This document shows positions 4,291 to 60,514 of a stretch of 64,000 nucleotides of DNA, in pieces (within the stretch, counting starts at the first letter, position 1; each line of letters begins with the position of its first letter). Below the pieces are notes generated by a model, which saw nothing but the letters and a program-made list of their open reading frames with translations, was not told where the DNA came from and searched no databases. Made by a program: the position numbers and the translations under genes. This stretch comes from Candidatus Latescibacterota bacterium. GTDB lineage: Bacteria; Latescibacterota; CBDEFO01. The stretch lies in contig CBDEFO010000006.1 of assembly GCA_965237525.1 (NCBI GenBank), positions 352,001 through 416,000 on the forward strand, written 5' to 3'.

Positions 4291-4328
4291 CCCGACCCCC
4301 AATTGAATCTCTTGGGGGCTGAATCGGG
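4291..4328. repeat. Two nested 19-bp palindromic micro-elements
   Basis: CCCAATTGAATCTCTTGGG inside CCCGACC|GGCTGAATCGGG. Confidence 0.8.
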
Positions 4329-4388
4329 GACTCAAGCAAGGAGAGGAGTCCACTGACTGCTGTCTTTCTACTTGTTATCCTCTTCCCC

Positions 4389-4760
4389 CTAGGGCCAGGG
4401 CTTGAACCACTGTACGATCTCGATCCTGTTGCCGTCGGGGTCTGCTACGAAGAAGCGGTCGGCTCCCGGGATTGGAACCGTCTCTTGCACTTCTACTCCT
4501 TTCTCTCGAAAGACATTCCGTGCGTTTTTAGCGTCCTCCACTTGCAGCGCTAAATGACGGGGAGAGATCGTATCTACACGATCTTTCGGCATGAGATGGA
4601 TATGCTCTTCCCCCACCTGAAACCAGACCACTTCAAACTCAAACGTAGAGGGTGTGGGTATCTCCTCTAAACCTAATACCTGTGAGTAAAACCGCGATGC
4701 CCTTTCTAAATCCGTCACTACGATAGAGCAGTGATGTAAGCCTGTGCAGGAAATTTCCAT
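4389..4760 (-). CDS. VOC (glyoxalase/bleomycin resistance) family protein
   Basis: LHHxSIVVTDLERASRFY..VLGL, HLAL, FFVADPDGNRIE. Confidence 0.9.
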   Translation of the reverse strand: MEISCTGLHHCSIVVTDLERASRFYSQVLGLEEIPTPSTFEFEVVWFQVGEEHIHLMPKDRVDTISPRHLALQVEDAKNARNVFREKGVEVQETVPIPGADRFFVADPDGNRIEIVQWFKPWP

Positions 4761-4954
4761 GTCCGGGTCTCCTTATGTTCTGCCCCCATGGGATAAGAAA
4801 ACAATTGGACAAGACAGTAAGAAGAAAGGATAGGGAATCCTCCCCTGCTTGTCCAATCTCTGCTGAATATTCCTTAGATCCCTTCCCCCACTGCGCGGCT
4901 TGCTGCTACCCCGGCAAAGCGGAGACTTTGTGCTTTGCCCCCACGTTCGTATTC

Positions 4955-5003
4955 GTAGGGGCAGGGTAACCCTGACCTTGGGGCGAGTGAACCTCGCCCC
5001 TAC
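4955..5003. repeat. GTAG-type REP-like doublet
   Basis: GTAGGGGCAGGGT..ACCCTG and GGGGCGAGTGAACCTCGCCCCTAC; related units at 9006, 9121, 9222-9247, ~17397, ~50686. Confidence 0.65.
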
Positions 5004-5163
5004 ATTTAATTTAAGGTTGTAAGGGCAAGAAGGTACTCCAATGTGTGACAAATTCTTGAGAAGAGCAACCTTTCCAAATCACAACTGAACAACTGTCTAG
5101 CGCTCTCATTTCATTTGATATTCAACCACCACTACTGTCTACTTTCCTATACTGCCTACTTCT

Positions 5164-5610
5164 TTATAATAAGCCTTCCTTAAGGGCCTCCTGAGCTGTT
5201 TTTCCCCCTGCCATCTTAATTATCTCCACATCGTAGTGATCTGCGATTTGAGCTACAGTCTTGATCGTAGCCTCGAACTCGTTTTGATCCATGTTCACCC
5301 CAGCTATCGAATGGCTAAACTTTATGGTATCGTCAAAAGTCAGCGAGAAGGCCCCAAAGTGGATGTTTGCGTTCTCGTTGAGGAGATAACGCATCAGATC
5401 CTCCGTTATAGTTGCTTCGTAGACCAGGAAGCTGAAGCAGTCCACTATAGCGTCATCTTTGTGCCAGGCCCTCACAAGGAGTTGAACCACGGTAGTCCCC
5501 ACCATGATAATATACCTGCCGTCCTCGAACTTTTCAAACTCATCCCCGTGGGTCCCCTCTAAATATTCCTCCACCCTCTTTGTCACCTTTTCCAGGATGT
5601 CTTCGGACAT
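5164..5610 (-). CDS. YbjN / type III chaperone-like domain protein
   Basis: 148 aa acidic protein, LMRYLLNEN..HFGAF, VAQIADHYD pattern; AGGAGG RBS. Confidence 0.75.
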   Translation of the reverse strand: MSEDILEKVTKRVEEYLEGTHGDEFEKFEDGRYIIMVGTTVVQLLVRAWHKDDAIVDCFSFLVYEATITEDLMRYLLNENANIHFGAFSLTFDDTIKFSHSIAGVNMDQNEFEATIKTVAQIADHYDVEIIKMAGGKTAQEALKEGLL

Positions 5611-5688
5611 TCTTATCCTCCTCCTTTTTGAGTCGATATGGATGTTCGTAGAGCTGGGTTCCCCAGCACTACATTTAATTCAGTAAGG

Positions 5689-6789
5689 CTATAGGAGATG
5701 ATCTTGCCCACGAGTGAGCCATTCAATATCGAACTGCGATAAGGTCAGCTTCTCGTAGGGATCCTCTTTGCCTGCTTCGTAAAGACAGCAGATGCTCATA
5801 TCGGGGGAAACAGCCAGGTCTGAATATGCAGAAGGACCCTCGCAGAGCAACCTGGAGACGGACCAGGTCCGGCACTCATCGTAGCTGACCCTGACCGTCA
5901 TCTTCTCCCTTTCGGTGCTGGCAGGATTCGAAAAGAGGACACGATTCTTGTCGTGGCGGCCCACCTGTGCCAAGCGAGCTAAACTGCCCTGGCACATCGG
6001 TTCAACGAGTGTTTCATCCCAGCCTAACTTTGAGAATGTCTGGCCGTTGTCGTAGCTCCATGCGTATCCGCGCCTCTTGGCGCCTCTGTAGTTGCGACAA
6101 TTGATATACACAGCACCGTCGCCGGTCTGGACGACTGCAGATTCGTTCGTGCCCTCATCCACAATTCCGCCGATCTTCCAACTTTCACCGTGGTCATCGC
6201 TGTAGATTATGTGCGAATGATAAGGATCGTTGCGATTGAAATTCACCCCCACGATGTGGTCGCAGGGGATCACCATCCTCCCATTTTCAAGTTGAATTCC
6301 ATGTCCGGGTCCCGTCGCATACCACGTCCAGGAGTCGTCTTTCACGTCCTGGGTGATCTCCTGTGGTTCAGCCCATGTTTCACCGTCGTCCGCGCTCTTG
6401 GTGATCCAGACCGTGCGCAGCGCTTTACCTTCGACAATCATGCTCTCAGGCCCATCCCCCAGGTTCTTGCAGAAGGGCAGCCAGATCGTGCCGTCGCTTC
6501 GATCTACGACCGGACACGGATTCCCGCATGTCATATCGCCGTCGGAGACGACAAGCTGCGTATCCTGCCATGTCTTCCCGCTGTCGAAACTCCGCTTCAA
6601 CAGGAGATCGATCTTGCCCGCATCGTCCCTTCCGTACTTTCTCCCCTCGCAAAAGGCCAGTATCGTCCCCACAGTGGAGACCACAAGGGCGGGGATCCTA
6701 TAAGTATGGTATCCTTCTTGACCCCCTATGAAGAGATCCCTCTGCTTGAGACGACCGCTATCTTCGGTCGGTATATCCTTTTCTGTCAT
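5689..6789 (-). CDS. Sialidase (BNR/Asp-box, GH33-like)
   Basis: YRIP motif; Asp-boxes SFDSGKTW, SADDGETW, SDDHGESW, SYDNGQTF, SYDECRTW; AYS motif. Confidence 0.9.
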   Translation of the reverse strand: MTEKDIPTEDSGRLKQRDLFIGGQEGYHTYRIPALVVSTVGTILAFCEGRKYGRDDAGKIDLLLKRSFDSGKTWQDTQLVVSDGDMTCGNPCPVVDRSDGTIWLPFCKNLGDGPESMIVEGKALRTVWITKSADDGETWAEPQEITQDVKDDSWTWYATGPGHGIQLENGRMVIPCDHIVGVNFNRNDPYHSHIIYSDDHGESWKIGGIVDEGTNESAVVQTGDGAVYINCRNYRGAKRRGYAWSYDNGQTFSKLGWDETLVEPMCQGSLARLAQVGRHDKNRVLFSNPASTEREKMTVRVSYDECRTWSVSRLLCEGPSAYSDLAVSPDMSICCLYEAGKEDPYEKLTLSQFDIEWLTRGQDHLL

Positions 6790-6874
6790 CTCTTTTTCTC
6801 CGCGACGTGCTGACCGGGCAAATTCGCCGAGTCGTCCTGATCCTTTTTCAGATGTCTGTCACTTGGGCGAGACG

Positions 6875-7558: not shown

Positions 7559-8008
7559 AGCATCTCCTCTTAATCCTCTCTCCTATGCCGCCGAGAAGCG
7601 GTGTCGTCAGGAGGCATGTGGAGCTGGTAGAATCCTTTAGTTGACATCTGCTACGCAGGCCTGAAGAATGACTGCCTCAAAAGAGCCTTATCCCCAAGTC
7701 CCTGGGGTTATTCTCCTTTTCAGATCGCCCGAACTTAATAGACCGATGGATTAGGAAGATACAAAGAAAAATGTTAGATGTCAATGAAGATTTCTCAGTG
7801 CCTGTGATTCTGAACGGTCGCATTGTCTGGGAAAGTTTTCCCACATCAGGCAAGCTCGAAGCTTCTATGAAAGCAACTTAAATCAAATGTAATACCAAAT
7901 TCTATTTAAGATGCTGCTAAGTCTCCCGGCCCAAGGGCGAGTGGACCCCCGATAAAGTCATTCGGGGGCAGGCCTCGCCCCTGCATTGTATCATCGAGAT
8001 CGGTTCCT

Positions 8009-8065
8009 CCCGATCCCCCCCGATAGATTCAATCGGGGGTAGAATCAATCGGGGATTCATTCGGG
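8009..8065. repeat. Three nested 19-bp micro-elements (57 bp)
   Basis: Peels into CCCGATAGATTCAATCGGG, CCCGGTAGAATCAATCGGG and CCCGATCGATTCATTCGGG. Confidence 0.85.
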
Positions 8066-8300
8066 AGCGCTCGCAATGACAGAGCCCGACTTAGGTCATT
8101 GTGAGGTGGATGAAATCCCCCGAAGCAATCTTTCCCTCTGCTTATCGGGCGGAGAACGCTCATGCCATATCAGACAGTGCTCATCCGTGAGTGGAGAGTG
8201 TCTTTGGGACTCTGTCGCCGATTTCTTTTGAATTGGGAAAGGTACCTGCACCTCATCGGAATTCCCAATAGAGTTTTTTAGAGTTTCTTCATTTTTTTTC

Positions 8301-8341
8301 TTGACATCTGAACTGTTGAATACTATTATTGTGTATAGTAT
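8301..8341 (+). promoter_or_regulatory. Sigma70-type promoter overlapped by a palindromic operator
   Basis: TTGACA(8301)-17 bp-TATTAT(8324); inverted repeat ATACTAT-N8-ATAGTAT at 8320-8341. Confidence 0.7.
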
Positions 8342-8415
8342 ATGCTAATCAGTGACGTGGCAATTGACATAGCTTCCTTTCGAAGCGGAGGATAAAAGAG
8401 GAGAAGGAGGTAACT

Positions 8416-8832: not shown

Positions 8833-8860
8833 AACGGGATGACGATGAAAAAAAGTTGAG

Positions 8861-8989: not shown

Positions 8990-9502
8990 GAACAGCAGGC
9001 GGTATGTAGGGGCGAGGAGCCATGGGCGCTTTGTTGGGGAGCCACAAGCCACGAAGTGGTCACCCCAAGGTCAGACACACGTCCCCGATAGAAGCAATCT
9101 CGTTTTTTAATATACAGAATGTAGGGGCGAGGCCTGCCCCCGAATGATTGATCCCCGACCCCCGATCCAGTCGGGGGCTCAATCGGGGAGGGTCCACTCG
9201 CCCGCAGGGGCACTGGTCTGTGTAGGGGCGAACCCACGTGTTCGCCCAGTAGTCAGCAGACAGAGGTAACCCCCTACTCAAAGGGGACATATTTGGATCT
9301 CTTAAAGTAGCCGAGGAGACTGCTTCTGGGCAGAAGGTACTGTTTGCCCGGCTTATAGGCTGTGACCAATCCGAAGTGTATTAACTAACGCAGGTGCCTA
9401 CCCTCCCTGACTGCCAGCAGGCAATTTTGTGATTGATATCCTCGGGGAAGTTTGTATCGTCCGGGGGAAGAATCGGAAGTTGTTCAGTAAGTTTTTCCTG
9501 TA

Positions 9503-10771: not shown

Positions 10772-11216
10772 CGTGCTGTTCCTCGACAGCATACCGGGGT
10801 GGGAGGAGTTTCCCTGTCTACTCTCTTCCGGGCAGGTCTGCCCTTGCCTTTCCCTGTCTACTGTCTACTGTTTACCGGTTGAATATCAAATGAAATCGGT
10901 GCACCTAATTTGATCTTTGTTTAGAGTATTAGTAGATTAAGTTGAGTTGATTGTCTTAACTTTAATCTACGGAGTCCTATGGACAAAGAGAGATTGGCCG
11001 TATTAAGACAAGAAGTCAACGAGATGTATTTTAAGAAAGAAATGTCAAAGCGAGAAGTTATCAAACAAGCGAGAGTTTCCAATGATTTCGTTACGGCTTG
11101 GACTAAATCTCCGGATCAGGATTTTGCCATAGATAATCGGGGTTGGCCAAAAGGAAAAAGGCGAAAATTGGCTAAAGTTGACGAACAGAGAATCAAAGAG
11201 ATTTACCATAGCTTAG

Positions 11217-12735
11217 AAGCCTTGTGAAATAGTTATGTCCCAGGCAGCGTCTGAAGCGCCGATTATGGGTCAAAGAGTAGCATATCGTATCGTTTTGCTG
11301 TGGAATAAGCAAAATAGTCTTATCAGAGTTCTGGTCAGCAAGGAATAGGAGCTGTTTGAAGAACAGGATGCACTGTCTTTGACAGACAGGGCACACATAG
11401 ACGCTTTCCCCCTTCTTATGAAAGATACAAGCCTCTTGAGATTCTGTACTGTTGCAACAAGATTCAACTGTTCATTCAGTGAGGCTGGTCCTCTGTAACG
11501 GGCTCGTCCCATACCGTGTTGTTGCCTGGCTTCAGCAAAGATATGTTCACTGCGTTTACGGAGTCTCCGGGAGAGTTTGTAGTCAGCTGTTAATGAGATA
11601 GACCGTGCATGATTTCTGGCTTTCGCCTCTCGCACTTTTCTATCCCGTTCGGCCTGAATATGTGCTGAATTTGTCTTGTTTTTCCATGTAGGAATCGGTT
11701 CAATCTTCTCATCGGCTCGCAGAGGAATATGGGGTATGATTCCCCGGTCAAGTACATCAGCGATAAAATTACCAGAACCGTAACCGGTATCGGCACTAAG
11801 TGTCTGAATGTCTTTGGGCATGGTGTATGTTTCAAGGTCATCTACCATCTTAAGGGCACTTTCGGGCTCTGCTGTCCCTGTCGCCTGCGTGCCCTGAGTC
11901 TCAAGGATTACTCTGCTTTTTGTGTCGATCAGATCATGGCCCATAAACGAGAGAAAAGCCCCTTTGCCCTTCGATTTGCTGTATAAGCGCGCGTCGGGGT
12001 CTGTAGTCGAACGGTGTGTTTGGTTCGTCCACTTTTCACCATGAAAGTCTTTATCCTGAGGATGCCCGGACCTACCCTTTGTCTTATCACCTTCAAAACC
12101 GATTCCCTTGAGATAATCATCAAGAGAAACAGGGGGTTCTATCGGCTCAATACTTTTCACTGAAGCATCAGCTTGTATCTGAGTGCCGTCGACACTAAGG
12201 TGTTTACCGCTTACAAGACCGACATCTATGCAACACTGGACTACCTGACGCATTATCCGTTCAAACAACCCACTGGATGCCCACTTGTGATTGCGAAGCT
12301 TGTTGATCGTGCTCCTATCCGGAACCGCATCATCAAATGTCTGATGACAAAACAACCGATATGCCGCATGCATCCCCACTTCCTGACAGAGCCGATTCTC
12401 ACTCAAATTATACAGATAGCCAATAAGGATCATTCGAACAACTAATTCAGGATCAATACCGGGTCTGCCATTGTCAGGGCAATAACAATCTGATACAACG
12501 TCTCGTACAAATGAAAAATCAACTGCCTCATCAATCTGACGAAGGATATGATCCTCGGGAACTAAATCCTCCATCTGAAAATAGTGAAACATCGGATTTG
12601 TCTGTTCCTGCTCTTGTGGGGTCATTGTTTCCTCCATGTATAATATTATCAATAACATAATATAATACATCGGAACTGCTTTATCAATGCTTGTTCTATA
12701 CTACTTTCTGAATCTAAGGGTTTTTCACAAGGCTT
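11217..12735 (-). mobile_element. IS1182-family element, copy 1 (1519 bp)
   Basis: 13-bp IRs AAGCCTTGTGAAA; TTAG at 11213-16 and 12736-39. Confidence 0.9.
11270..12670 (-). CDS. IS1182-family transposase (start may be ATG 12637 or 12625)
   Basis: LEDLVPxDH-like, GRPGIDP, PDRSTI, VDGTQIQADAS, TTDPDARLY, ADTGYG, RSEHIFAE. Confidence 0.9.
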   Translation of the reverse strand: MYYIMLLIILYMEETMTPQEQEQTNPMFHYFQMEDLVPEDHILRQIDEAVDFSFVRDVVSDCYCPDNGRPGIDPELVVRMILIGYLYNLSENRLCQEVGMHAAYRLFCHQTFDDAVPDRSTINKLRNHKWASSGLFERIMRQVVQCCIDVGLVSGKHLSVDGTQIQADASVKSIEPIEPPVSLDDYLKGIGFEGDKTKGRSGHPQDKDFHGEKWTNQTHRSTTDPDARLYSKSKGKGAFLSFMGHDLIDTKSRVILETQGTQATGTAEPESALKMVDDLETYTMPKDIQTLSADTGYGSGNFIADVLDRGIIPHIPLRADEKIEPIPTWKNKTNSAHIQAERDRKVREAKARNHARSISLTADYKLSRRLRKRSEHIFAEARQQHGMGRARYRGPASLNEQLNLVATVQNLKRLVSFIRRGKASMCALSVKDSASCSSNSSYSLLTRTLIRLFCLFHSKTIRYATL

Positions 12736-12739
12736 TTAG

Positions 12740-14258
12740 AAGCCTTGTGAAATAGTTATGTCCCAGGCAGCGTCTGAAGCGCCGATTATGGGTCAAAGAG
12801 TAGCATATCGTATCGTTTTGCTGTGGAATAAGCAAAATAGTCTTATCAGAGTTCTGGTCAGCAAGGAACAGGAGCTGTTTGAAGAACAGGATGCACTGTC
12901 TTTGACAGACAGGGCACACATAGACGCTTTCCCCCTTCTTATGAAAGATACAAGCCTCTTGAGATTCTGTGCTGTTGCAACAAGATTCAACTGTTCATTC
13001 AGTGAGGCTGGTCCTCTGTAACGGGCTCGTCCCATACCGTGTTGTTGCCTGGCTTCAGCAAAGATATGTTCACTGCGTTTACGGAGTCTCCGGGAGAGTT
13101 TGTAGTCAGCTGTTAATGAGATAGACCGTGCATGATTTCTGGCTTTCGCCTCTCGCACTTTTCTATCCCGTTCGGCCTGAATATGTGCTGAATTTGTCTT
13201 GTTTTTCCATGTAGGAATCGGTTCAATCTTCTCATCGGCTCGCAGAGGAATATGGGGTATGATTCCCCGGTCAAGTACATCAGCGATAAAATTACCAGAA
13301 CCGTAACCGGTATCGGCACTAAGTGTCTGAATGTCTTTGGGCATGGTGTATGTTTCAAGGTCATCTACCATCTTAAGGGCACTTTCGGGCTCTGCTGTCC
13401 CTGTCGCCTGCGTGCCCTGAGTCTCAAGGATTACTCTGCTTTTTGTGTCGATCAGATCATGGCCCATAAACGAGAGAAAAGCCCCTTTGCCCTTCGATTT
13501 GCTGTATAAGCGCGCGTCGGGGTCTGTAGTCGAACGGTGTGTTTGGTTCGTCCACTTTTCACCATGAAAGTCTTTATCCTGAGGATGCCCGGACCTACCC
13601 TTTGTCTTATCACCTTCAAAACCGATTCCCTTGAGATAATCATCAAGAGAAACAGGGGGTTCTATCGGCTCAATACTTTTCACTGAAGCATCAGCTTGTA
13701 TCTGAATGCCGTCGACACTAAGGTGTTTACCGCTCACAAGACCGACATCTATGCAACACTGGACTACCTGACGCATTATCCGTTCAAACAACCCACTGGA
13801 TGCCCACTTGTGATTGCGAAGCTTGTTGATCGTGCTCCTATCCGGAACCGCATCATCAAATGTCTGATGACAAAACAACCGATATGCCGCATGCATCCCC
13901 ACTTCCTGACAGAGCCGATTCTCACTCAAATTATACAGATAGCCAATAAGGATCATTCGAACAACTAATTCAGGATCAATACCGGGTCTGCCATTGTCAG
14001 GGCAATAACAATCTGATACAACGTCTCGTACAAATGAAAAATCAACTGCCTCATCAATCTGACGAAGGATATGATCCTCGGGAACTAAATCCTCCATCTG
14101 AAAATAGTGAAACATCGGATTTGTCTGTTCCTGCTCTTGTGGGGTCATTGTTTCCTCCATGTATAATATTATCAATAACATAATATAATACATCGGAGCT
14201 GCTTTATCAATGCTTGTTCTATACTACTTTCTGAATCTAAGGGTTTTTCACAAGGCTT
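12740..14258 (-). mobile_element. IS1182-family element, copy 2 (1519 bp), tandem to copy 1
   Basis: Same IRs; TTAG at 12736-39 and 14259-62; a few SNPs versus copy 1. Confidence 0.9.
12793..14193 (-). CDS. IS1182-family transposase
   Basis: Near-identical to 11270-12670; differs at DGIQ/DGTQ, ATAQ/ATVQ, SSCS/SSYS. Confidence 0.9.
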   Translation of the reverse strand: MYYIMLLIILYMEETMTPQEQEQTNPMFHYFQMEDLVPEDHILRQIDEAVDFSFVRDVVSDCYCPDNGRPGIDPELVVRMILIGYLYNLSENRLCQEVGMHAAYRLFCHQTFDDAVPDRSTINKLRNHKWASSGLFERIMRQVVQCCIDVGLVSGKHLSVDGIQIQADASVKSIEPIEPPVSLDDYLKGIGFEGDKTKGRSGHPQDKDFHGEKWTNQTHRSTTDPDARLYSKSKGKGAFLSFMGHDLIDTKSRVILETQGTQATGTAEPESALKMVDDLETYTMPKDIQTLSADTGYGSGNFIADVLDRGIIPHIPLRADEKIEPIPTWKNKTNSAHIQAERDRKVREAKARNHARSISLTADYKLSRRLRKRSEHIFAEARQQHGMGRARYRGPASLNEQLNLVATAQNLKRLVSFIRRGKASMCALSVKDSASCSSNSSCSLLTRTLIRLFCLFHSKTIRYATL

Positions 14259-15244
14259 TTAGAGGACGATCCTTATCAGTTCTATTCAGGAGCCACTGTT
14301 ATTGAACAAGAATGGAGGAATCGATATTCTAGCACCCCTCCTCCGTCGTTGCCGACTATCGGCAGAATGCTTTCAGATTTAGGACTTTCCCAGAGAAGGA
14401 AGAAAGGTAAAAACAAGGGTGCATCTCGTTATCTTTGTTATCCAGAGTATACCATTTACTATCTTTTAGGAGGCAGAGTCCTAGAATCAGACTTTATTGG
14501 TAAAAAGTATCTTACCGGCAGAACTGAGCCGGTCAACTTCGTTGGATTTTCCTTTAAGAAAGAGCCTAAGTTAAGGTATTTTCGGCGGGTTGACGGTCAA
14601 ACAGCAACTAACTTTATCGAGAAGTGTCAGTCTTTCTTTGACAGGTTTGAAAAACCAGATTTCGTTAAGGTGGACAATTGCTCGGCGACTATTGGCAGTG
14701 TTTCAGGTAAAAGGAATGTCAGCAAAGCAATGCAGTTTCTCTTGAAAAATCAAGTGATTCCGATATTTGCCGTTCCCAGAAGGCCCTTTTCTCAAGCATC
14801 TATAGAAGGCAACAATTCTGTATTTTCAAGGAAGTTCTGGAACAGAATTCAGTTCAAAAGCTTACAAGAAGTTGATCAGAAGTTAGAATGGTTTAATCTT
14901 TCATCACAGAGATACACCGGCTACCGTCCACCTAAGCAAGAGAAGTCAAACGAGAAAGATTTCATTCCCAAGACCTATTTTATCAGACAAGTCAAACAGG
15001 ACACAGAACAGACAGATAAAGCCTTTATCGATGTCCTAAATGAGAAAGTATCTCTTCCCTCCTCTTACACCAACTACTTTGTCCTGGCTGAATGGAACCT
15101 AAAAGAAGAACAATTATACATCCATTTTGAAAAAGAACAGAAACCAAAGATTGTCGAAAACCTATCATTCAAGATCAATCAAAGATCGAAAGAGAAGTGC
15201 ACCGATTTCATTTGATAAATAACCTCTACTGTCTACTTATCTTG

Positions 15245-15964: not shown

Positions 15965-16299
15965 CCCCCTGTAGATTAGGAAAGAGTAGGTAGTAAACAG
16001 GGGTACTATCTACCACCTCACCAGATTGCTTCGGGGCATTTCATGCCCCTGGCAATGACTGAAGAACAGGTAGCTGTCATTGCCAAACCCCGATTGAGTC
16101 TACCCCCGATTGAATCTATCGGGGGGGATCGGGGGAAGGCCACGAGCCTTTAGCCCAGAGCGAAGCGAAGGGTCTTAGAAGCAATCTGGCTGTATAGCGT
16201 CTATTTAAGTGTATTACGATCAAGATAGCAATAATGTGGGGATGATACAACTACTTTTTTGCTCCCCACAGGAACTTTGTAACTCTGCCAAATAATTTC

Positions 16300-17399: not shown

Positions 17400-17654
17400 G
17401 GGCGAGGGCCACTTGCCCAGTACACATCCAAGCTTCTCCCCTCACGGGACGCTTTCTACAAGATTGCTTCCCCCCGACCCCCCCGATAGATTCAATCGGG
17501 GGTTCAATCGGTTGCGCTTGCAATGGCTAAAGGCGGATGCTCTCTTCCTTAATATGAGGTGCCAAAGCTCCGAAAAGACGCGAAGCGGAACCAATCTCTT
17601 CTGCTTTATGGTTAATAACCCTTAATGTCTAAATGTTATCTCAAGGCAAAGTAT

Positions 17655-18152: not shown

Positions 18153-18153
18153 A

Positions 18154-23173: not shown

Positions 23174-25486
23174 TCAAATCATCCCGAACGTCCTGAGTAA
23201 CTTTGACACGCGCTTGGGCTCATCAGTCGGCGGAGCGCAGGCCGTTCCAGCGCATATATAAGCCTGCGGACCCGACTCTATATCGGCGTATTTGACTATC
23301 AGAGCCACAGTCTCAGGGAACTTCTTGTCCTTAACCTCAAAAGGGTCGTAGTTGATCACTATCTTTCCCGGCCTGTAGGTCTTGTGGCCTGCCCTCATAA
23401 GCTCCAAAGTACGACCGTCGTCCTTCTTACCCACTACCACAGCCTGAGCTGGATGGTTCAGATGATAATCCACACCTAAGGCATACGATGAGGCAAAGGC
23501 CCCATAGGCCGCAGCAGCCCCCGCGAATGCCTCAAGCGTCTTTTGCGCCCAGTTCCTGTACTTTTCCTCATCGGTCAGATAGTATATCCTGTCCAGAACC
23601 ATGGCCGCTATGGAGTTTGCCGCAGGATATGGTGAATCTTCAAAGGCCTTGCGCTTCATCTTCAACAATCCCAAAGCCTCTTGGGAGGGATTTGAATCCC
23701 AAAAGCCTCCATTTTCACCGTCCCAGAATTCCCGATGAGAGTAGTCCATAAGGTCCATAGCTATCTCCAGATGCTGGAAATCCCCCGTCACTTCAAAGGC
23801 GTCTAAGAGGGCGTAAGCCATCCATACCTGATCTTCCAGGAGCCCTTCGACCCTCGCCTTTCCGTCTAAATAGATGTGCCTTACGCCCTTTGGGGGCGTG
23901 TAGGACTTTTCCAGCACGAACGAAAGGCTCCTCAGCGCAAAATCCCTTATATCGTCCCTACCCAGCACCCTGGAAGCCTCAAGATAGGCTGAAATCATCA
24001 TACCATTGTAATTTGAGAAAATATTCTTATCCACAAAGGGAGGCTTCCGCTTATTCCTGATTTCAAGGAGCCTCTCTTTGCCGCTTTCTATGAGCCTATC
24101 GGCTTCGGCCAGGGACACAGCTAACTTTGATGCCACCTCTTCAAGGGGCAAGGCTTCGTACAGAACGTTTCTTTCCGGCGCGCTCTCAAGATCGTGAGGA
24201 ATCTCCCTGACTCCGTAGTGGAGAATCGAGGCCTTTCGTTCATTATCGCTCAATGCGTTTTCTATTTCCTTTTGAGTCCACGTGAAATAATCCCCGTCGT
24301 CCTCCAAACTCACGTCCGCATCTTGATGTCCGTAAAAGCCGCCATTTTCCCGATCGGACAGAACTCTGTCAACATATTCTACAATGCCTTCTGCTATCTG
24401 TTTGAAGTACTCGTCACCGCTTATCTGATACGCGTGCAAGTAGTTCTTTAGGAGTCCGGCGTTCACGTAGGACATCTTCTCAAAGTGCGGGACGTTCCAC
24501 TTGCGATCTACCGAATATCTGTGAAACCCCCCACCTATGTGATCCCGTATTCCCCCCTTTGCCATCACCTTGAGGGTCTTGAGGGCTATCTCGAGCATCT
24601 GATCATCTTGGTTCTTAAAATACTCCAACATAGCCAATTCCATAGCCCCTGAGTTGGGGAATTTGGGACCATTTCCTTGTCCGAATCCCCCGTACTCGTC
24701 ATCAAACGCCTGCTGCAAAGCAAAGGCCAGGGAATCCACCAAGCTTTCTGACAGTTCCCCGGTCTTAATCTGCAAATCTCCGAGAGTCTCTAAATGTCTA
24801 TATATTCTGTCCGCCCCCTGCAGGACTTGATCTCTATCATCTTTGTACATCTGTGCGATATTCGGCAGAAGGCTCCTCATACCTGGCCTTCCCAATCTGT
24901 CTGAAGGGGGAAAATACGTTCCGCCGAAGAAGAGCTTTCCCTCAGGAGTCAAGAACGCCGTAAGGGGCCATCCTCCTCCGCCCGTTATCGCTCTTACTGC
25001 CCTCTGATATCTCCTGTCCACGTCGGGCCTTTCGTCCATGTCCACCTTGACGGGTATAAAATACTCATTTATGATCTCTGCAATCTCCTCATTTTCGTAG
25101 GTCTCCCTGTCCATCACGTGGCACCAGTGACACCAGACGGCTCCTATGTCCAGAAGAATGGGTCTGTCCAGTTCCTTTGCTGCCTGGAAGGCCTCTTGGT
25201 CCCATGGATACCAGTTGACCGGCTGATGCGCTGCGCTCTTTAGATAGGCGCTGGAAGATCCAGCCAGGCGGTTTACCCGTGGAGAGTCTTCCGACCGATT
25301 GCGACTCTCGTTTACATCTCCACTGTCCCCTGAGCTGCAGCTTATCATTATGCTCAAGGCAGCGACGGCTAAATAGCAGCAGACAGGTCTCCGATTGAAT
25401 CCCCGATTGAGTCTATCGGGGATCGGGACAGAGGCTTTCCTTCTGCTCCGAACTAAACTGAAGGAGGCTTTCCGTAATCTATTCAC
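23174..25486 (-). CDS. Thioredoxin domain-containing protein (DUF255/YyaL/SPATA20-like), probable lipoprotein
   Basis: NRLA..SSAYL..AHQPVNWYPW, WCHWCHVM, GGWPLT, HFEKM; lipobox-like MISC; start uncertain. Confidence 0.9.
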   Translation of the reverse strand: MNRLRKASFSLVRSRRKASVPIPDRLNRGFNRRPVCCYLAVAALSIMISCSSGDSGDVNESRNRSEDSPRVNRLAGSSSAYLKSAAHQPVNWYPWDQEAFQAAKELDRPILLDIGAVWCHWCHVMDRETYENEEIAEIINEYFIPVKVDMDERPDVDRRYQRAVRAITGGGGWPLTAFLTPEGKLFFGGTYFPPSDRLGRPGMRSLLPNIAQMYKDDRDQVLQGADRIYRHLETLGDLQIKTGELSESLVDSLAFALQQAFDDEYGGFGQGNGPKFPNSGAMELAMLEYFKNQDDQMLEIALKTLKVMAKGGIRDHIGGGFHRYSVDRKWNVPHFEKMSYVNAGLLKNYLHAYQISGDEYFKQIAEGIVEYVDRVLSDRENGGFYGHQDADVSLEDDGDYFTWTQKEIENALSDNERKASILHYGVREIPHDLESAPERNVLYEALPLEEVASKLAVSLAEADRLIESGKERLLEIRNKRKPPFVDKNIFSNYNGMMISAYLEASRVLGRDDIRDFALRSLSFVLEKSYTPPKGVRHIYLDGKARVEGLLEDQVWMAYALLDAFEVTGDFQHLEIAMDLMDYSHREFWDGENGGFWDSNPSQEALGLLKMKRKAFEDSPYPAANSIAAMVLDRIYYLTDEEKYRNWAQKTLEAFAGAAAAYGAFASSYALGVDYHLNHPAQAVVVGKKDDGRTLELMRAGHKTYRPGKIVINYDPFEVKDKKFPETVALIVKYADIESGPQAYICAGTACAPPTDEPKRVSKLLRTFGMI

Positions 25487-32064: not shown

Positions 32065-32244
32065 TTAGTATCGTGCCAAAATAGAATTATAGAGAGCCAA
32101 AACAGTAGACAGCAAAGAGTATATCTAAGTGAGATTGCTTCCCTCCGACCCCCCCCACAGGTTCAATCGGGGGCGCTCGCAATGACGGTTTATGGAGGAG
32201 AGGCAGTACCCCTGTCTACTGTCTGCTGACTACTGTCTACTTAC

Positions 32245-33724: not shown

Positions 33725-33821
33725 ATTGATTGGTTTCAACCTTGGGTCATTCCGAGGGGATGAAACTCCGAATCCCGATTGAACCTATCGGGGACTCATG
33801 GGATGCGAGGCAGTGCCCTGT

Positions 33822-37932: not shown

Positions 37933-38158
37933 GATGCTACATCGGTCCCGCCATTCCAGGCTTGTCCCCGATTGCTTCTATCGGGGACTTGGAGAGCTAC
38001 GGCGGATTGTGAAGTTTACGGATCCGTATTGGGCATCTTCCTGTGGCTACGGTTCTTAGCACCTAACTCAAGCAGACCAGCTATATTCGAACCCCGACAG
38101 ATTCGTTCGAAGGTCAAGTTCCGTGCCACTGTCTTCCCTATTTTAGCCACAATACCAT

Positions 38159-50889: not shown

Positions 50890-51067
50890 ATTATAGTTAT
50901 CCCGTTTAACCACCTTTGGTGTCATTGCGAGCCGAAGGCGAAGCAATCTCGATTCTGTGGTAGATGTAATACTCTCCGGCTCTCATAGGAGACCACTATA
51001 ATACCTTGAGATTGCTTTGTCGCTTTGCTCCTCGCAATGACTCCACCAAGCTTATGAATTAATGGGG
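50890..51067. repeat. Partial copy of the MITE at 52945-53193, lacking the 19-bp insert
   Basis: Near-identical to ~52995-53193; ends ATGAATTAATGGGG followed by TTAG. Confidence 0.75.
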
Positions 51068-51537: not shown

Positions 51538-52171
51538 GGTAATACTACAACATCATACACCTTAATATCTTGCGAAGAGTCAAGTATTACTTCCTATTAC
51601 CATATGCGAAAATGCAACTACTGTAGGTGCACCAGATTTTGGAAATTATCAGGTGGTAGATATCGTTGTCAAGGGTGTCGTAGCTACTACCATTTTCGAA
51701 CCAATACCTACTGGTCCAAGAGCAAGATTTCTCCTTACTGTAAGGAGAGGCTCCTTGAGTTCGAGTGTCTCGCGGTTTCTGCTTACCCGATAAAGTTCCG
51801 GATCCCAACACACTTACATACTATTAAACGTTTCTACCGCATAGTCCGCCTTGCTATCTATCAGAACTCCGTCGAAGAACTCAATCCCCTTTCTGGACAG
51901 ATAGAGATGGATGAGACTATGTTTGGTGGACGTTCTGGCCAACGAAGACAAACGACATCTCAATAGTAGAGACCATCTAAATGGAATCGAAGGCTTTTTT
52001 GTCATACGCTAAGCACTTTCTATGTTCTTATGCAGGTGTACCCAACCAATATTTCCGCCTCTACCTTAAGGAAACAGAATGGAGATTCAACCATAAACGC
52101 CAGGGCCTAAGAGAGATAGCCAGACACCTTATGGTCGCCACTCTCAAAGGGTATGACGTTGTGGCATTACC
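51538..52171 (+). mobile_element. IS1595-family remnant, internally deleted
   Basis: Imperfect IRs GGTAATACTACAACATCATAC / GTATGACGTTGTGGCATTACC; Zn ribbon, IEMDETMFGG, HLNGIEG, YLKETEWRFN. Confidence 0.85.
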
Positions 52172-52211: not shown

Positions 52212-52540
52212 CGTGACACACTGTAATGTGTTACGTGACATCTTTTTATGGAGTCGCCCCCGATTGAATCTATCGGGGCTCAACCTTTGCGGAAATCCTC
52301 AGGCGAGATGCTGTACCTGCATATCATGCTGTGGAAACTTTGACGTTCATTACGTACCCTCTTAGCTGCTTCGGTAACGATGCCTGCTGTAGCCCATAGG
52401 GCCTCACGAACGACTCTCTTCCCCAGGGCGCTTCCGGGGCACTTTGCCGCCCCCACTCGAGGTTACTGTGTACTTTGGTCTCAGCCCTTGTTCCAGCAGA
52501 AAGAGCCAAGCACCGGCAAGCCTTCTTGAGTCATCGTTCG
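52212..52540 (-). pseudogene. Diverged duplicate of the 3' end and downstream region of the NtrC-type gene
   Basis: 52212-52412 aligns by eye to 54042-54243, including the HTH-coding part; upper boundary approximate. Confidence 0.75.
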
Positions 52541-52944: not shown

Positions 52945-53193
52945 CCCGAATAATTCACAAAAAAACGACGTGTATTAATTAAGCGATTGTATTATATTAT
53001 AGTTATGCGGTTTAACCACCTTCGGTATCATTGCGAGCCGAAGGCGAAGCAATCTCGATTCTGTGGTAGACGTAATACTCTCCGGCTCTCATAGGAGACC
53101 ACTATAAAACCTTGAGATTGCTTCCCCTATAGACTCAATCGGGGACCGCTTTGCTCCTCGCAATGACTCCACCAAGTTTATGAATTAATCGGG
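52945..53193. mobile_element. MITE (249 bp) with TTAG target duplication
   Basis: 17-bp IRs CCCGAATAATTCACAAA / TTTATGAATTAATCGGG (2 mismatches); TTAG at 52941-44 and 53194-97. Confidence 0.8.
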
Positions 53194-53404
53194 TTAGATG
53201 GTCTCTACTATTGGTATGTCCTTTGTCTACCTCGACTAGAGCCTGCTTACCACGGATAGATACAGAAACGTAAGCATGCCAATCATCCGTATAGCAGAGA
53301 CTACCCGGCTTAGTATGTTGGGTAATGCGGAGAACGATTACTTGTCTACTTCGAGACGGGACAGGAGAAGTCGATACTTTCCCATTTGTCTGATACATTC
53401 CATC

Positions 53405-53460
53405 CCCGACCCTCCCCGATTGAATCTATCGGGGATCAGTCAATCGGGGGTTCAATCGGG
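53405..53460. repeat. Three nested micro-elements (19+18+19 bp)
   Basis: Removal leaves ATC|GAC and restores the transposase frame. Confidence 0.85.
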
Positions 53461-53651
53461 GACAGTAACCTTACCTTCAGAACCCCAACCTGGCTTACCT
53501 GATCTCTTGCCACCAAACCTAGTCCCATCCATCTCTATCTCTCCACAAAGGAGTCTCAGTTCTTCCAGGGAGTCCTGATAGATATCAAGGTGAACTACGC
53601 GGTAGACACGTTCAATAGTATGTAGGTGTATTGGAACTCGGAACCTTAACC

Positions 53652-53670
53652 CCCGATAGATTCAATCGGG
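53652..53670. repeat. Single 19-bp micro-element in a CC|GG site
   Basis: CCCGATAGATTCAATCGGG; absent at the homologous position ~51787. Confidence 0.9.
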
Positions 53671-54109
53671 GGTAAGCCGGAACCGCAAGACAAAAAGACT
53701 CAAGCAACCTTCCCTTCCAATAAGGAGACACTTTGCTCCTGGACCAGTAGGCTTTAGTTCGGAAATGATAGTCTCTACGACACGCTTGACAACCATAGCG
53801 ACCATCCGATAATTTCCAAAATTCGATACACCTGCAGCAGCTGCATTTTCGCACATCATAATACGCAGTAATACTCGATTATTCGCAAGATATTGAGGTC
53901 TATGATGTTGTAGTCTTACCAACAAATAAGCCGCTTAACCAGATCAACTCTTAAGGTAAGTGGCTTATAATCAGGCTGTTATCTTATATTAGTATATGTA
54001 AGCTATTCTTCTGTTTCGGGAGACCGCATATTTACACTCATCGTGACACACTGTAACGTCTTACGTGACATCTCTTTAAGGAGTCGCCCCCGATTGCATC
54101 TATCGGGGG

Positions 54110-56880: not shown

Positions 56881-56900
56881 TCGCGTTTGACAAATTCTTT

Positions 56901-57323: not shown

Positions 57324-57615
57324 CTCCCAGCAACATAGCCTTGTACATTAAGAATCCCCTCAAAAGAGTCTCTTATCTTTATAAATATTCAGACCGGCAC
57401 AACAGACCAGCCAGCGCCAGATCAGTCATGCTGTCCCGAGTTTATGGAACAAATTCCCAGTTGCTTTCGTCGATTATACTATTTAGTTTACCCAGGTAGA
57501 AGACTCACCTGGTCTTAAATCAAGATAGACCTAATTAAGGGTCAATATACTTGGGTAGCCTGGATTCAGCGGCTATGCTGCGGGTCGATCAGGAAATCTT
57601 GAGAAACCTGGATTT

Positions 57616-58308
57616 TTATTCCAGTGGACGATGTTTGAGAAGCTTTGGAGGTCTTACGATAGTCCTCTGCTCCCAGCTGTTCCAGTCGTCCAAGAATCTT
57701 TTCAATCCTATGTCCGTAAGCGGGTGCTTTGTCAACTTCCGTATCACATCAAGGGACATTGTGGCAATATGTGCTCCCATCAGTGCTGCCTCTACCACGT
57801 GTTTGGAGGACCTTATGCTCGCCACTATCACCTCACAGGGAAAGTCGTAGTTGTCTATAATGGCCACAGACTGCTCGACAAGCTCCATCCCAGAATGACC
57901 TATGTCGTCCAGTCTCCCCACAAATGGACTCACGTAAGATGCCCCTGCTTTCATAGCTACTAGTGCCTGAGTTGCCGAGAAGATCAGCGTTGTATTGATA
58001 CCTATCCCTTCGGAAGAGAGCTTCTTTATCGCCTTTAGTCCCTCTTCCCCTATGGGAACCTTAACGCATATCTTCTGATGGAGTTTTGCCAACCTTCTGC
58101 CCTCTTCGATCATCCCCTCGGCGTCTGTACTTACCACCTCTGCGTTGACAGGACCGTTCACTATATCACAGATCGTAAGGAGTATCTCCTCGAATGTGCC
58201 CTCTTCCTTGGACATCAGAGATGGATTCGTAGTAACACCGTCCAAAATGCCCAAAGCGGCCGCCTGTTTAATATCATCTATACTGGCTGTGTCTATGAAG
58301 AATTTCAT
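57616..58308 (-). CDS. fsa: Transaldolase / fructose-6-phosphate aldolase family
   Basis: [40 protein letters not shown]. Confidence 0.93.
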
Positions 58309-58466
58309 AGCTTTCTCCTATCTACAAGTAGACAGTAGGTATTTGCAGGGGCTGGGTAATCTATAGGATTACACAAGAATTCCCCTCTACTGTTTAAGCA
58401 AACACGTGGGCCTGTCCCCGAATGGCTTAATCGGGGATCGCCCCAACATTCCGTCTCTCTGGCCAC

Positions 58467-59672
58467 TTATGAACTTTCCTCTCCTTCTTCGTCTGAACCC
58501 TTGCCCTCTTCTTCTTTTGATTCTGTATCCGTTGATTCTGTATCCGTTGTCTCAACCGGTTCTTCCTGTTCCTCTTCTTGCTCCTCTTCTTCCTGTGGCT
58601 CTTTATCCTCCTTTTCCAGCAAGTTATCCTGATCCTTTTTCATCCTCAAAATCAGATATATAATGGCCTGACCGGAACTGAACACGCTCAAGGAATAGGA
58701 ATATACTATTCCTATGACTGTCAAAAGCATAATAGCTAATATTCTGCCCGACCAGAGCAGGACTCCCGTCGGATCAGTCTGAGCGTCGGGAAGGCATGTC
58801 CGCAGGCTGAGATACGCCGGGCCACCCTTGAAAAAGCAAAAGAGATTCTCGGGGACATACCAAAGGGCTGCTTGCATCATGAGCGACAACTTCTCATCCA
58901 TGAAAAGGCCGAGCGCTCCGTTGATAAGGATCAGAGCCTGAAGGACGAAAAAACCGAATATGACCGTCACAAGAACGACGACGAACTTAAGCCAACCCCC
59001 GTACAGGATCAGCCTCCAAGGTTGGCTCCACACTGTCGAGAAGGACTCTATAACGGTACCTATGGTGTCCTCCTCAGCAGTCCCGACTATGGCGGGGGCA
59101 AGAAAGAGGGATGCCAAGAAGACAAGCACCATGTAGATAGTTATCAAAGATACAAGGAATATCGGCAAAAGGAAGACTGCAAAGGCTACCTCGCCCACAT
59201 ACGGTATATAGTGTGCGATGACACCTATTATTATAGCGCATACCACCAAGAAAGCGATCATAAAGAGTACGAAAAACGGGGAAAGGATGGCAGCTCTCCA
59301 GTTTCCTCTGGCAAATTTAAAGGCGTCTCCTGAAGAATAGAAGTCGTCCCCCTTGAGCTGTTGATAGGCTACCTTGCATATCATAGCTGATGTAAAGAGC
59401 AGAATGGCCAGGACAATCACATACCCCAAAATGATGAAGACGCAGCCGTGCCAGCTCAAGTCCATCCCGATCACTCTGGGAAAGAGGCCGTAGGTATCCC
59501 AAATTGTGCCGATTGACTTTGAGCTGCCAGCTAGGATGGCTATGTGCGTAAGGATGAAGTGGACGACATAACCAGCGGCGATGCCGAGGAATGCTATCCA
59601 GATCTTCTTACCGCTTGAGCCGAGCCGAGAAGCGCTGAAGATGTCCCGAATGTCGAAGCGTAAATCTTGCAA
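58467..59672 (-). CDS. Multi-pass membrane protein with acidic C-terminal tail
   Basis: 401-aa hydrophobic ORF, E/D-rich tail. Confidence 0.75.
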   Translation of the reverse strand: MQDLRFDIRDIFSASRLGSSGKKIWIAFLGIAAGYVVHFILTHIAILAGSSKSIGTIWDTYGLFPRVIGMDLSWHGCVFIILGYVIVLAILLFTSAMICKVAYQQLKGDDFYSSGDAFKFARGNWRAAILSPFFVLFMIAFLVVCAIIIGVIAHYIPYVGEVAFAVFLLPIFLVSLITIYMVLVFLASLFLAPAIVGTAEEDTIGTVIESFSTVWSQPWRLILYGGWLKFVVVLVTVIFGFFVLQALILINGALGLFMDEKLSLMMQAALWYVPENLFCFFKGGPAYLSLRTCLPDAQTDPTGVLLWSGRILAIMLLTVIGIVYSYSLSVFSSGQAIIYLILRMKKDQDNLLEKEDKEPQEEEEQEEEQEEPVETTDTESTDTESKEEEGKGSDEEGEESS

Positions 59673-59880
59673 TGTTCCCCCCCCTTTTTGTAAGCAGACA
59701 GCAGCAGTAAAGAGGGTTTCCTCTCCTCCCTATCTACTGTCTGTCTACTTCGATACTTTTGGAAACTTACTGTTGCAGTTTGTTGTAAAGAGTTACACTT
59801 GATGATCGATTTGCACAAAATATAGCCACTTATCTAAGATATGTCAACACATTTTTGAAGAGACGCTTTCTGCAAAAGGG

Positions 59881-60365
59881 CTAATTACCCAAATAGGCCT
59901 CCTTAACGCGACTGTCTTGTGCAAGGTCTGATACCTTGCCTTTTATAGCTATTCTGGCCGTCTCAAGGACATATCCTCTGTTAGCAAGGTGCCAGGCTAA
60001 AGTTGCGTTCTGTTCGACGAGCAAAACCGTGATACCTCTTTTATGTATCTGATTTATAATATCTGCTATCCTCGACACAAATTTGGGACCCAATCCCATG
60101 TGGGACCTAATCCCACTCTCACAGGAGACCACTATAAAAACTTGAGATTGCTTCCCCGATAGACTCAATCGGGGACCGCTTTGCTCCTCGCAATGACTCC
60201 AGCAAGTTTATGAATTAATCGGGTTAAATAGGTTGTTCTTTCCAGCTCCGTTTGGACCTATCAAACTGACGGTGTTCCCTTTTTTACGTCCACACTTGTG
60301 TCGCTTATCGCGCTTAAGCCCTCGAACTTTTTCGTTATGTTTTTTACGCTCAGAATAGGCAAGTC
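59881..60365 (-). pseudogene. Remnants of branched-chain amino acid ABC ATPases (LivG N-terminus, LivF C-terminus) joined through a partial MITE at ~60113-60223
   Basis: ILSVKNITKKFEGLSAI; MGLGP..LLVEQNA..RGYVLETARI..VKEAYLG. Confidence 0.75.
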
Positions 60366-60514
60366 GTTTCTCAAGTAAATAGTGGTCAGTAGACAGGGCA
60401 CTTCCCTCATCCTAAACTGCCATTGCCAGCACCCCCGATTGACTCTATCGGGAGGATGCAATCTCACTTAGACTGGCTATTTCCGTACGCTGTCTGCTAC
60501 CTTGTCAGTCCTAT

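Follow-up and report, generated by a model that had tools for sequence, protein, structure and literature searches.

A 23-nt hairpin in Candidatus Latescibacterota that is gained at orthologous sites and behaves as very small mobile DNA

A 64-kb window in the genome of a Candidatus Latescibacterota bacterium (GenBank assembly GCA_965237525.1, contig CBDEFO010000006.1, positions 352,001 to 416,000; the whole stretch analysed here) carries many copies of a short palindromic repeat. An original prediction, made from the window alone, had described this repeat as a 19-nt element inserted precisely by an enzyme acting in trans. We found that the unit is a 23-nt hairpin that has been gained at orthologous sites, and is mobile DNA. 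The commonest outcome of a gain is the replacement of four target bases by the 23-nt unit. The anatomy of these junctions is the new part of this description. The window was analysed together with its 4.58-Mb host genome and the closed sister genome, G001, which belongs to the same genus and is approximately 95% identical. Copies were counted as core matches with at most 3 mismatches to CCCGATAGANTCAATCGGG unless another limit is given, flank and pairing statistics were taken from 455 de-duplicated copies, and nested copies were parsed by repeated removal of cores in three rounds.

The unit reads YC-CCCGAT-AGANTCA-ATCGGG-GR, and either strand can fold into a stem of 8 bp that carries a loop of 7 nt. 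The positions directly outside the 19-nt core (-1 and +1) are C and G in 428 and 420 of the 455 copies, and those at -2 and +2 (Y and R) pair in 78.7% of copies, compared to 46% by permutation. Positions -3 and +3 pair in 25.7%, below the permutation level of 35.5%. Because pairing rises above chance at -2/+2 and falls below it at -3/+3, the boundary lies at 23 nt. Outside it, R is found at -3 in 348 copies and Y at +3 in 382. The G6-C18 stem pair is altered on both sides in 36 of 595 copies and all 36 retain Watson-Crick pairing (6.5 expected); the folding score of the unit is z -4.9. These double-changed copies may represent a few propagated lineages or arm-to-arm correction, and the fold is kept either way. 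The loop also has conserved bases that do not pair. A 15-nt-core form with the same feet is present in about two dozen copies (30 by a looser pattern), and units insert into one another, with nested inserts at the TAGA of the outer unit in at least 33 of 41 parsed cases. We considered a two-sided cutter of the GANTC(9/13) type, which fits a 23+4 geometry numerically, and rejected it: the central GANTC is neither specially conserved nor depleted, and no distal recognition motif was found.

The repeat is far more abundant than expected by chance. CCCG-N11-CGGG is found 14 times in the window, where 19 other spacings give 0–3 matches each; in the whole genome the count is 428, compared to 41–104 for 21 other spacings. 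The genome holds 595 copies, and block-shuffled DNA yields 3. The genome-wide search with iterative removal that the original prediction had proposed gave 639 copies (592, 43 and 4 in successive rounds). The sister genome has 391 copies with at most one mismatch, and none occurs in 39 others of the phylum. Insertion events are fewer than copies, because some copies rode along with larger repeats: one multiplied within a host repeat (the family of 53125 and 60155; 35 filled and 10 empty sites in the genome) and another within the leader of an insertion sequence (IS; 9 filled, 1 empty). Several unit sites and genes on a 25-kb contig, C2, are near-identical to the stretch at about 540–556 kb of contig C4, which may be an assembly or strain duplicate that slightly raises the counts. 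A library adapter had been named as a possible source of the motif. Contigs assembled from run X2, which belongs to a study other than that of the best holder, run X1, span the copies at 52259, 53415, 53652 and 54089 with few differences, and contigs of run X4 span 53415. Of 527 copies, only 2 are found 500 nt or less from the end of a contig, and 80 copies have equal length in the sister genome. The motif is real and not an artefact.

We compared orthologous sites over 2.8 of the 4.54 Mb of G001. Of 272 host copies with a two-sided orthologue, 80 had the same length in both genomes and 33 were cleanly polymorphic, and rearrangement was too extensive for scoring at 159; the reverse comparison from G001 gave 249 sites (80 shared, 26 polymorphic, 143 too rearranged). 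The direction of change is gain, because the empty alleles do not resemble excision scars and paralogous proteins lack the added peptide. An anchor method then yielded 96 filled/empty pairs, from which 64 events were retained (net size 15–28, good flanks, near-duplicates removed), a set that still holds a few related cases. Net sizes were 15 (3 events), 16 (1), 18 (9), 19 (25), 20 (5), 21 (4), 24 (1), 25 (2), 26 (2) and 27 (12). Thus the commonest outcome is +19, that is 23 nt in place of 4, and the second is +27. No event of +22 was found among the 64, and none of +23 among either the 64 events or the 96 pairs. The view of a very small non-autonomous mobile unit is borne out: the unit nests in itself and has no coding capacity. 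No regular target duplication was found, as had been predicted. The precise 19-nt insert did not hold up, since YC and GR travel with the core and the target 4-mer is left unchanged in 2 of the 25 +19 events. Imprecise indels of variable length, or local slippage, had been named as grounds for refuting the proposed element. This applies in part, as net sizes range from 15 to 28 with peaks at 19 and 27, but slippage is a poor fit to these two peaks, to a boundary as sharp as that at 23 nt and to the covariation in the stem. Filled and empty paralogous sites both exist within the window, as had been claimed; the pair formed by 53125/60155 and 51018 differs by 20 nt and traces to one old insertion that multiplied with its host repeat.

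In the 14 non-nested +19 events, the lost 4-mer agrees with YC/GR at 30 of 56 positions (p 4e-6), and CG stands at its centre in 7 of them (p 3e-6). Targets therefore partly resemble the feet of the unit. Outside the unit, mismatches between filled and empty alleles are concentrated near the junction. For net sizes 18–20 (n=50) the mismatch is 0.33 and 0.18 at the first two positions and then about 0.1, and for net sizes 25–28 (n=19) it is 0.32–0.39 over four bases and about 0.08–0.1 further out. The bases 1–4 nt outside the unit are often overwritten by donor-like bases. Where the four-base flanks differ, the filled word is the commoner one beside unrelated copies on 44 sides, compared to 17 for the empty word (p 7e-4); the control 11–14 nt out gave 13 versus 12, and repeat contexts may inflate the 44 to 17 ratio. 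An exact CYTG tail (CCTG or CTTG) lies on one side of the unit in 7 of the 12 +27 events. This tailed 27-mer has 55 copies in the host genome, 36 in G001 and one in a single genome among 166 others of the phylum, and its loops are more varied. The tail word is on the left in 17 copies, on the right in 48 and on both sides in none, where about 1.5 would be expected, a difference that is not significant alone. Direct repeats flank some of the 455 copies (3 nt in 38 versus 11 expected, 4 nt in 20 versus 3.5, 5 nt in none). These are mostly the tail word or the TAG of heptamer repeats: TAG or CTA makes up 20 of the 38 three-base repeats, and the tail word 11 of the 20 four-base ones. At 754 ends, the four bases leading outward are generally not of the GTAG type, and CTAC (25 ends) stems from heptamer repeats.

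Copies are concentrated in other repeats and depleted from genes. Among the 595 copies, 259 lie within 60 nt of Ssn-type repetitive extragenic palindromic (REP) elements, GTAG REPs or GTAGACA heptamers, compared to 3% of random sites. The heptamer words GTAGACAG number 627 genome-wide. Cores of open reading frames (ORFs) cover 59% of the genome and hold 58 of the 595 copies, a six-fold depletion. In polymorphic coding cases the net length is a multiple of three in 15 of 16. The genes involved encode, among others, an ABC transporter, a phosphomannomutase, a hydantoinase-methyltransferase and a propeller-repeat protein, and the in-frame copies add peptides such as SPIDSIGD, SPIESIGD, PDRFNRG and PRLNLSG to enzymes. 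The unit is selfish DNA, and where a copy changes the length of a gene by a multiple of three it is tolerated in the form of a short peptide loop. Immediately upstream of genes such as rpsB, copies give spurious N-terminal extensions of the type PPIDSIGG (L266:3998-4813, L237, L226). The added peptides matter in these lineages for the annotation of start sites and for gene calling.

The unit is not confined to this genus. Records titled Ca. Latescibacterota contain the unit, and the exact 23-mer occurs in several metagenome-assembled genomes of Deltaproteobacteria, five of which hold 6–37 copies with at most one mismatch. Matches were found in 15 of 96 Deltaproteobacteria genomes, mostly one block of relatives. 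A metagenome scan returned at least 120 stretches with the 23-mer, including contigs of 59–68% GC, one of which belongs to Burkholderiales by its EF-Ts cluster. In these other lineages, R occupies -3 in 32 and Y occupies +3 in 29 of 35 distinct contexts, a preference not forced by the search pattern. One exact 23-mer crosses phyla and adds short peptides to working enzymes. The exact 21-mer matched no viral contig, plasmids gave chance-level matches only, and no RNA dataset was among the listed holders of the unit. A single archaeal match, one copy beside an IS-like ORF, was not taken as evidence of an archaeal family. The tailed 27-mer lies on 14 viral loci, about six of which have REP-like loops, with the rest likely chance. 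Some of these loci are Mu-like by eye, and viruses are a possible vehicle. Tailed 27-mers, one nested in another, were seen on prophage-like viral contigs (L364, L367, L368, L358).

Comparison with Deltaproteobacteria points to an origin. There, the hairpin of the unit occurs as an arm of CGTC-type REPs. Ssn genes 71% identical to the Ssn gene of the host genome are flanked by tagged REPs that differ from the core at two positions (L327; also L344; genome G075), and one locus (L306) holds a full tagged REP with the exact core. Tagged REPs were found in 10 of 15 element-positive and 8 of 81 element-negative Deltaproteobacteria genomes, which are kin and not independent. On the evidence of this likeness, the unit is likely a detached stem-loop arm of an Ssn/CGTC-type REP that lost its tag. 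Other short hairpins, several with CCTG-type tails, lie inside REPs that flank Ssn genes (L344, L337, L342, L354, L336), which suggests that the detachment of REP arms is a general process.

No candidate enzyme is encoded in the window, in agreement with the prediction of an enzyme in trans. The host genome contains one ssn gene of the GIY-YIG family (C4:479842-480120, minus strand; L196), which lies between inverted tagged hairpins unlike the unit. Ssn was not among the candidates first named, and is the family whose repeats the hairpin resembles. The genome also has one intact RAYT-like HUH gene for a protein of 176 aa (C8:1476118-1476648; L379:219-746) flanked by GTAG repeats, with one copy of the unit in the downstream repeat. 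A Pfam Y1_Tnp search of the host genome had returned nothing, a false negative revealed by tblastn: the protein scores 21.3 bits with Pfam, under the cut-off, and 63.5 bits with NCBIfam REP_Tyr_transpos, for which the cut-off is 80. Family searches thus miss the RAYT subclass of this genome. A HUH/RAYT-type nuclease had been one of the original candidates, and such a gene exists outside the window, but its distribution does not follow that of the unit: RAYT homologues occur in 54 of 168 genomes of the phylum and the tailed element in 3 of 168. Indeed, no tested enzyme family tracks the unit. Ssn, RAYT, reverse transcriptase (RT), IS110, DUF559, Cas1, a four-helix-bundle protein and a second small GIY-YIG subfamily all failed as co-occurring enzymes, and for each of RT, IS110, DUF559 and Cas1, one or both sister genomes lack the gene. 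Several of these checks covered 2–7 genomes, and the Pfam miss of RAYT means that such blanks are weak. Searches for an element-linked partner gave no better candidate. No enzyme gene was recognised among 32 and 21 ORFs bracketed by units, whose nuclease identity was judged by reading their sequences; 119 residual half-sites contained no autonomous partner with the same ends; and a motif scan of proteins shared by genomes produced only false positives.

Several further genes were recorded in the course of these searches. Six element-positive Deltaproteobacteria (G041, G042, G133, G135, G136, G130) have 5–13 Y1_Tnp matches each, compared to 0–3 as a rule in the class, and ten Y1 genes inspected in G041 are flanked by repeats unrelated to the unit. 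In one of these genomes (L352, G133:C83), a small GIY-YIG gene of the other subfamily is bracketed by CCCCGTTAGA..TCTAACGGGG hairpins that differ by one letter from the left arm of the unit; it has no close homologue in the host genome or the compared part of the sister genome. The PF05635 four-helix-bundle gene was not found in the host genome, and the sister copy has an internal TGA. Two RT genes are present only in the sister (G001:C1:3731484-3733370 and 3677787-3679310), one of which is retron-like, has a partner upstream of it and is truncated by an IS.

How the unit moves is a matter of balanced probabilities. We give an even chance to a tag-less REP arm that is pasted as single-stranded DNA (ssDNA), guided by its tail, by an enzyme in trans and in place of about four target bases. 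The hairpin strand would fold out at a replication fork or in other ssDNA, and a hairpin-binding ssDNA nuclease or strand transferase would cut at or near purine-pyrimidine steps at the stem feet. The released hairpin, with a donor tail of 1–6 nt, could then pair across a partly matching target with its core looped out, and host repair would fix the insert, either losing about four target bases (+19) or retaining a 4-nt tail such as CYTG (+27). Release of a single strand near the stem feet and pairing of its tail are suggested because the fold is conserved, the feet are sharp, the tails resemble and overwrite the target, and +23 is missing. As the cutting enzyme, we would assign about half of the weight to an Ssn-type GIY-YIG nuclease, about a third to a RAYT-type HUH enzyme and the rest to another enzyme; Ssn and RAYT, two proteins of the same genome, are thereby named for testing. 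SsnA cuts ssDNA a few bases upstream of a hairpin and depends on the upstream bases (PMC11893778), and RAYTs cut at CT or CA chosen by a guide (PMC8266576). Neither cutting rule matches the junctions exactly.

A number of observations weigh against this tail-guided ssDNA scheme. The sister genome, with as many copies and new insertions of its own, has no Ssn, no Y1/RAYT match and no IS110, DUF559 or Cas1 match. Ssn-like matches were obtained in 6 of the 15 genomes that have the element and in 22 of the 81 that do not, and G075 and G085, the genomes richest in tagged REPs and with matching Ssn, have no tag-less copy within one mismatch. SsnA requires the bases upstream of the palindrome for cutting and is not known to join strands (PMC11893778). 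Under the RAYT rule (PMC8266576), a CYTG guide would direct cuts to C|A or C|G, but tailed copies are mostly at G^T (21 of 50 de-duplicated cases). The purine-pyrimidine step at empty-target junctions is weakly enriched (19 of 58, compared to 0.227). Fork-linked ssDNA transposition predicts a strand bias, and the bias of tailed copies (51:24 raw) is gone after de-duplication (24:15, p 0.2). In addition, nested cases make up 11 of the 25 +19 events and may have arisen by the copying of a few composites, and most orthologous comparisons could not be scored (159 of 272 and 143 of 249). The enzyme gene would come and go within the lineage, as these genes are patchy. Its past presence is possible because of this patchiness and because other repeat families in the host genome also lack a partner gene.

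The absence of every tested enzyme family from at least one of the sister genomes would also suit a process with no dedicated enzyme, in which the hairpin is copied through a template switch of the replisome, or enters as a short oligonucleotide that anneals at the fork, with 2–6 nt of microhomology as the only guide, and flanks inherited from the donor reinforce the target preference. This explanation, which we regard as possible if not probable, accounts equally well for the likeness of tails to targets and for the donor-like flanks, and it fits the repeat-context lineages such as TAG..TAG, the nesting at the outer TAGA and the spread of net sizes. The sharp stem-foot boundary, the missing +23, the near-fixed sequence across phyla and the conserved loop bases argue instead for a protein that reads sequence, and arms of 2–6 nt are very short for annealing without help. 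The two peaks can also be read as 23 minus 4 and 23 plus 4, as if a 23-bp duplex with 4-nt overhangs entered a staggered break, with sticky joining giving +27 (and one donor flank, as in coupling sequences) and trimming giving +19. Four-nt repeats in excess with none of 5 nt, the one-sidedness of donor 4-mers, and a 15-nt core that equals the 19-nt core minus the TAGA replaced by nested inserts agree with such a double-strand cut-and-paste. We nevertheless consider it unlikely: a fold in single-stranded form agrees better with the covariation and with the family whose loop is shortened, most of the +27 class is a tailed subfamily, the tail word itself accounts for 11 of the 20 four-base repeats, a distal motif and special conservation of GANTC are lacking, the abundant IS uses YTAR and shares no ends with the unit, and no long element has these ends.

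An oligonucleotide made by RT from a transcript or template RNA and captured at nicks, another of the original candidates, appears very improbable. One template would suit a sequence fixed across phyla, the sister genome has two RT genes, and co-conversion of flanks also marks intron and GC-cluster insertions (PMC4478555); but the host genome has no RT by Pfam or by tblastn with the sister's RTs (IS fragments alone matched), there is no Rfam match in the window, and no sense bias remains after de-duplication (22:18). The precise 19-nt insert at a blunt YC^GR cut, as first proposed, is largely refuted by the orthologue comparison and keeps almost no credit. Removal of 19 nt does leave C|G in 545 of 639 copies (TC|GA in 280, CC|GG in 165) and +19 is the commonest net size, but the lost 4-mer is YCGR in just 3 of the 25 empty alleles and is unchanged in 2, and 39 of the 64 events have other net sizes. 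Equally slight is the chance of a non-mobile protein-binding or uptake site of the host raised by mutation and selection, or of a sequencing artefact. Many copies of near-palindromic form recall operator, DNA uptake sequence (DUS) or HIP1 sites, yet presence or absence of whole units at orthologous sites, nesting, in-frame peptides, the depletion from ORF cores and the spanning contigs already refute this explanation.

A bolder reading treats the unit as a selfish oligonucleotide. It is a doubtful proposition in our view that a hairpin of at most 31 nt, freed from its REP tag, moves within genomes and between phyla as free ssDNA. We are as hesitant about the corresponding pasting step, in which tail pairing would act with host repair alone or with borrowed nucleases, and donors would hand their flanks to targets. 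If true, this would be a replicator without a gene or a partner enzyme and with a heritable target preference, and a steady source of protein loops of 6–9 residues. The dozens of filled/empty junctions, with their clear signature (23 for 4, tailed +27, no +23 and donor-like flanks), provide a yardstick for any proposed enzyme.

Within the window, we found 17 cores, the copy at 58417 with 4 mismatches, four more shells after iterative removal and a 15-nt core at 9161, in agreement with the more than 20 units first reported. All 17 positions quoted at the time were right. Those at 7948, 17482, 33774, 37967, 52259, 53125, 53652, 54089, 58417, 60155 and 60434 are intact cores, and those at 4291, 8009, 9139, 16089, 25390 and 53405 are outer shells of nested copies.

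Copies of the unit and empty paralogous sites in the 64-kb window. Positions are those of the window; the last column gives the state in the sister genome or the independent contigs that span the copy.
Positions	Strand	Feature	Comparison
4289..4330	.	Nested pair: outer unit from 4291, inner 23-mer core 4298-4316 (CCCAA..TTGGG variant, compensated)	Sister genome identical
7946..7972	-	CCTG-tailed 27-mer, core 7948-7966, within GTAG-type repeat	Sister genome empty, net +27
8007..8067	+	Triple nest, cores 8009, 8016 and 8019, within Ssn-type REP	
9082..9104	+	Decayed copy with 3 mismatches	
9133..9190	+	CCTG-tailed outer unit (core from 9139) with nested unit and 15-nt-core variant at 9161	
16087..16128	-	Nested pair: outer 16089, inner core 16105-16123	
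17471..17512	+	Nested pair within Ssn-type REP, inner core 17482-17500	
25388..25429	-	Nested pair: outer 25390, inner core 25402-25420	
32151..32173	+	Decayed 23-mer, 3 mismatches, in Ssn-type REP	
33772..33794	-	23-mer	Common to sister genome
37961..37987	+	CTTG-tailed 27-mer, core 37967-37985, CTTG also after unit	Sister genome 27 nt shorter
51017..51020	+	Empty site paralogous to 53125/60155, 20 nt net difference	
51786..51789	-	Empty paralogous site of 53652, IS1595-like remnant; 4 nt versus 23 in filled copy	
52257..52279	-	23-mer	Spanned by contigs of run X2
53123..53145	+	23-mer in Ssn-type REP family, inherited copy	
53403..53461	.	Cluster of multiple nested units, inner core 53415-53433	
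53650..53672	+	Consensus 23-mer in place of 4 nt of IS remnant	
54087..54109	-	23-mer	Common to sister genome
58411..58437	+	CCTG-tailed 27-mer, divergent loop, core 58417-58435, in GTAG-type repeat	
60153..60175	+	23-mer, paralogue of 53125	
60432..60454	-	23-mer in Ssn-type REP	Common to sister genome

The window also holds an IS1182/IS5-like element of about 1.52 kb at 11213-12738 and 12735-14265, with about 144 near-identical copies genome-wide (161 ORFs in the cluster). Its flanking 4-mers are YTAR, the same on both sides in 95 of 128 scored copies and different in 33, the latter likely through recombination between copies. Considered as a mobiliser of the unit, this element was rejected for its YTAR duplications and unrelated ends.

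How REPs, small dispersed repeats (SDRs), Rickettsia palindromic elements (RPEs) and GC clusters multiply is a long-standing question, and CGTC-type REPs are without a demonstrated mobiliser; the junction set makes the question testable. The unit is neither a MITE (a miniature transposable element with inverted repeats) nor a REPIN. MITEs share inverted repeats with an autonomous IS, and the 119 half-sites lead to no long element and the ends of the main IS differ; they have a fixed target-site duplication, and repeats of 3–4 nt flank 58 of the 455 copies only. A CRISPR repeat or structured RNA is likewise not indicated, with no Cas1 in either sister genome and no Rfam match in the window. In the open literature (subscription papers, the SDR paper among them, lay outside its reach), we found no match to the sequence or to two of the peptides and no description of the family. 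GTAG REPs and REPINs with RAYT resemble the unit in their short hairpin, in the 4-nt 5' tail of the CYTG subfamily, in the lack of a target duplication and in a RAYT in the genome. They differ in that the unit has no GTAG/GTGG guide, is a singlet and not a doublet, and does not have C|T or C|A junctions by rule (PMC3116915, PMC6006769, PMC8266576); moreover, the RAYT of the host genome is flanked by its own GTAG repeats and is not found in the sister genome. RPEs are also palindromic inserts tolerated in frame inside proteins, but at about 105–146 bp (PMC3184786) they are five times longer, and they are lineage-restricted.

The closest relatives in sequence are CGTC REPs and Ssn-related motifs (NTS, dRS3, RPE-4/6). 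The likeness lies in an 8-bp-stem hairpin 0–2 mismatches from the tagged REPs at L306, L327 and L344, in intragenic copies and in the one Ssn gene of the host; unlike these REPs, the unit is without the CGTC/TGTC-AT tag and the CCA tail, is not dimeric, and moves as a single unit in either orientation, entering other REPs (PMC3733652, PMC11893778). Only 1 of 43 GTCAT-N-CCCG words in the host genome leads into a unit, whose flanks are R..Y or CYTG, and the unit is neither organised as head-to-head dimers nor found beside a cognate ssn gene; that of the host is flanked by a different hairpin. In behaviour, the unit recalls other systems. The SDRs described by Elhai et al. (2008) are reportedly 21–27 nt long. 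By the definition of SDRs, the unit corresponds to them in its very short length, filled/empty mobility and in-frame copies. SDR1-8 of Nostocaceae are, similarly, very short non-coding repeats judged mobile by filled and empty sites and without a known enzyme, and for SDR5 the point of entry into a short target is fixed (PMC4390886, PMC5861425, PMC3116915). The targets of the unit are not HIP1, the SDR5 target. The GC clusters of yeast mitochondria (GC42) are short palindromic mobile units with a constrained stem, merged or nested copies and an enzyme that is unknown, and substitutions directly beside their inserts are read there as co-conversion tracts (PMC4478555). They differ in being organellar, 42 nt long and regularly flanked by an AG target duplication (PMC4478555); the unit is half that size, bacterial, and usually deletes target bases. 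Taken together, these comparisons suggest that the unit works like cyanobacterial SDRs and yeast GC clusters, and that it probably derives from CGTC/Ssn REPs, yet lacks the features by which a member of that family is recognised.

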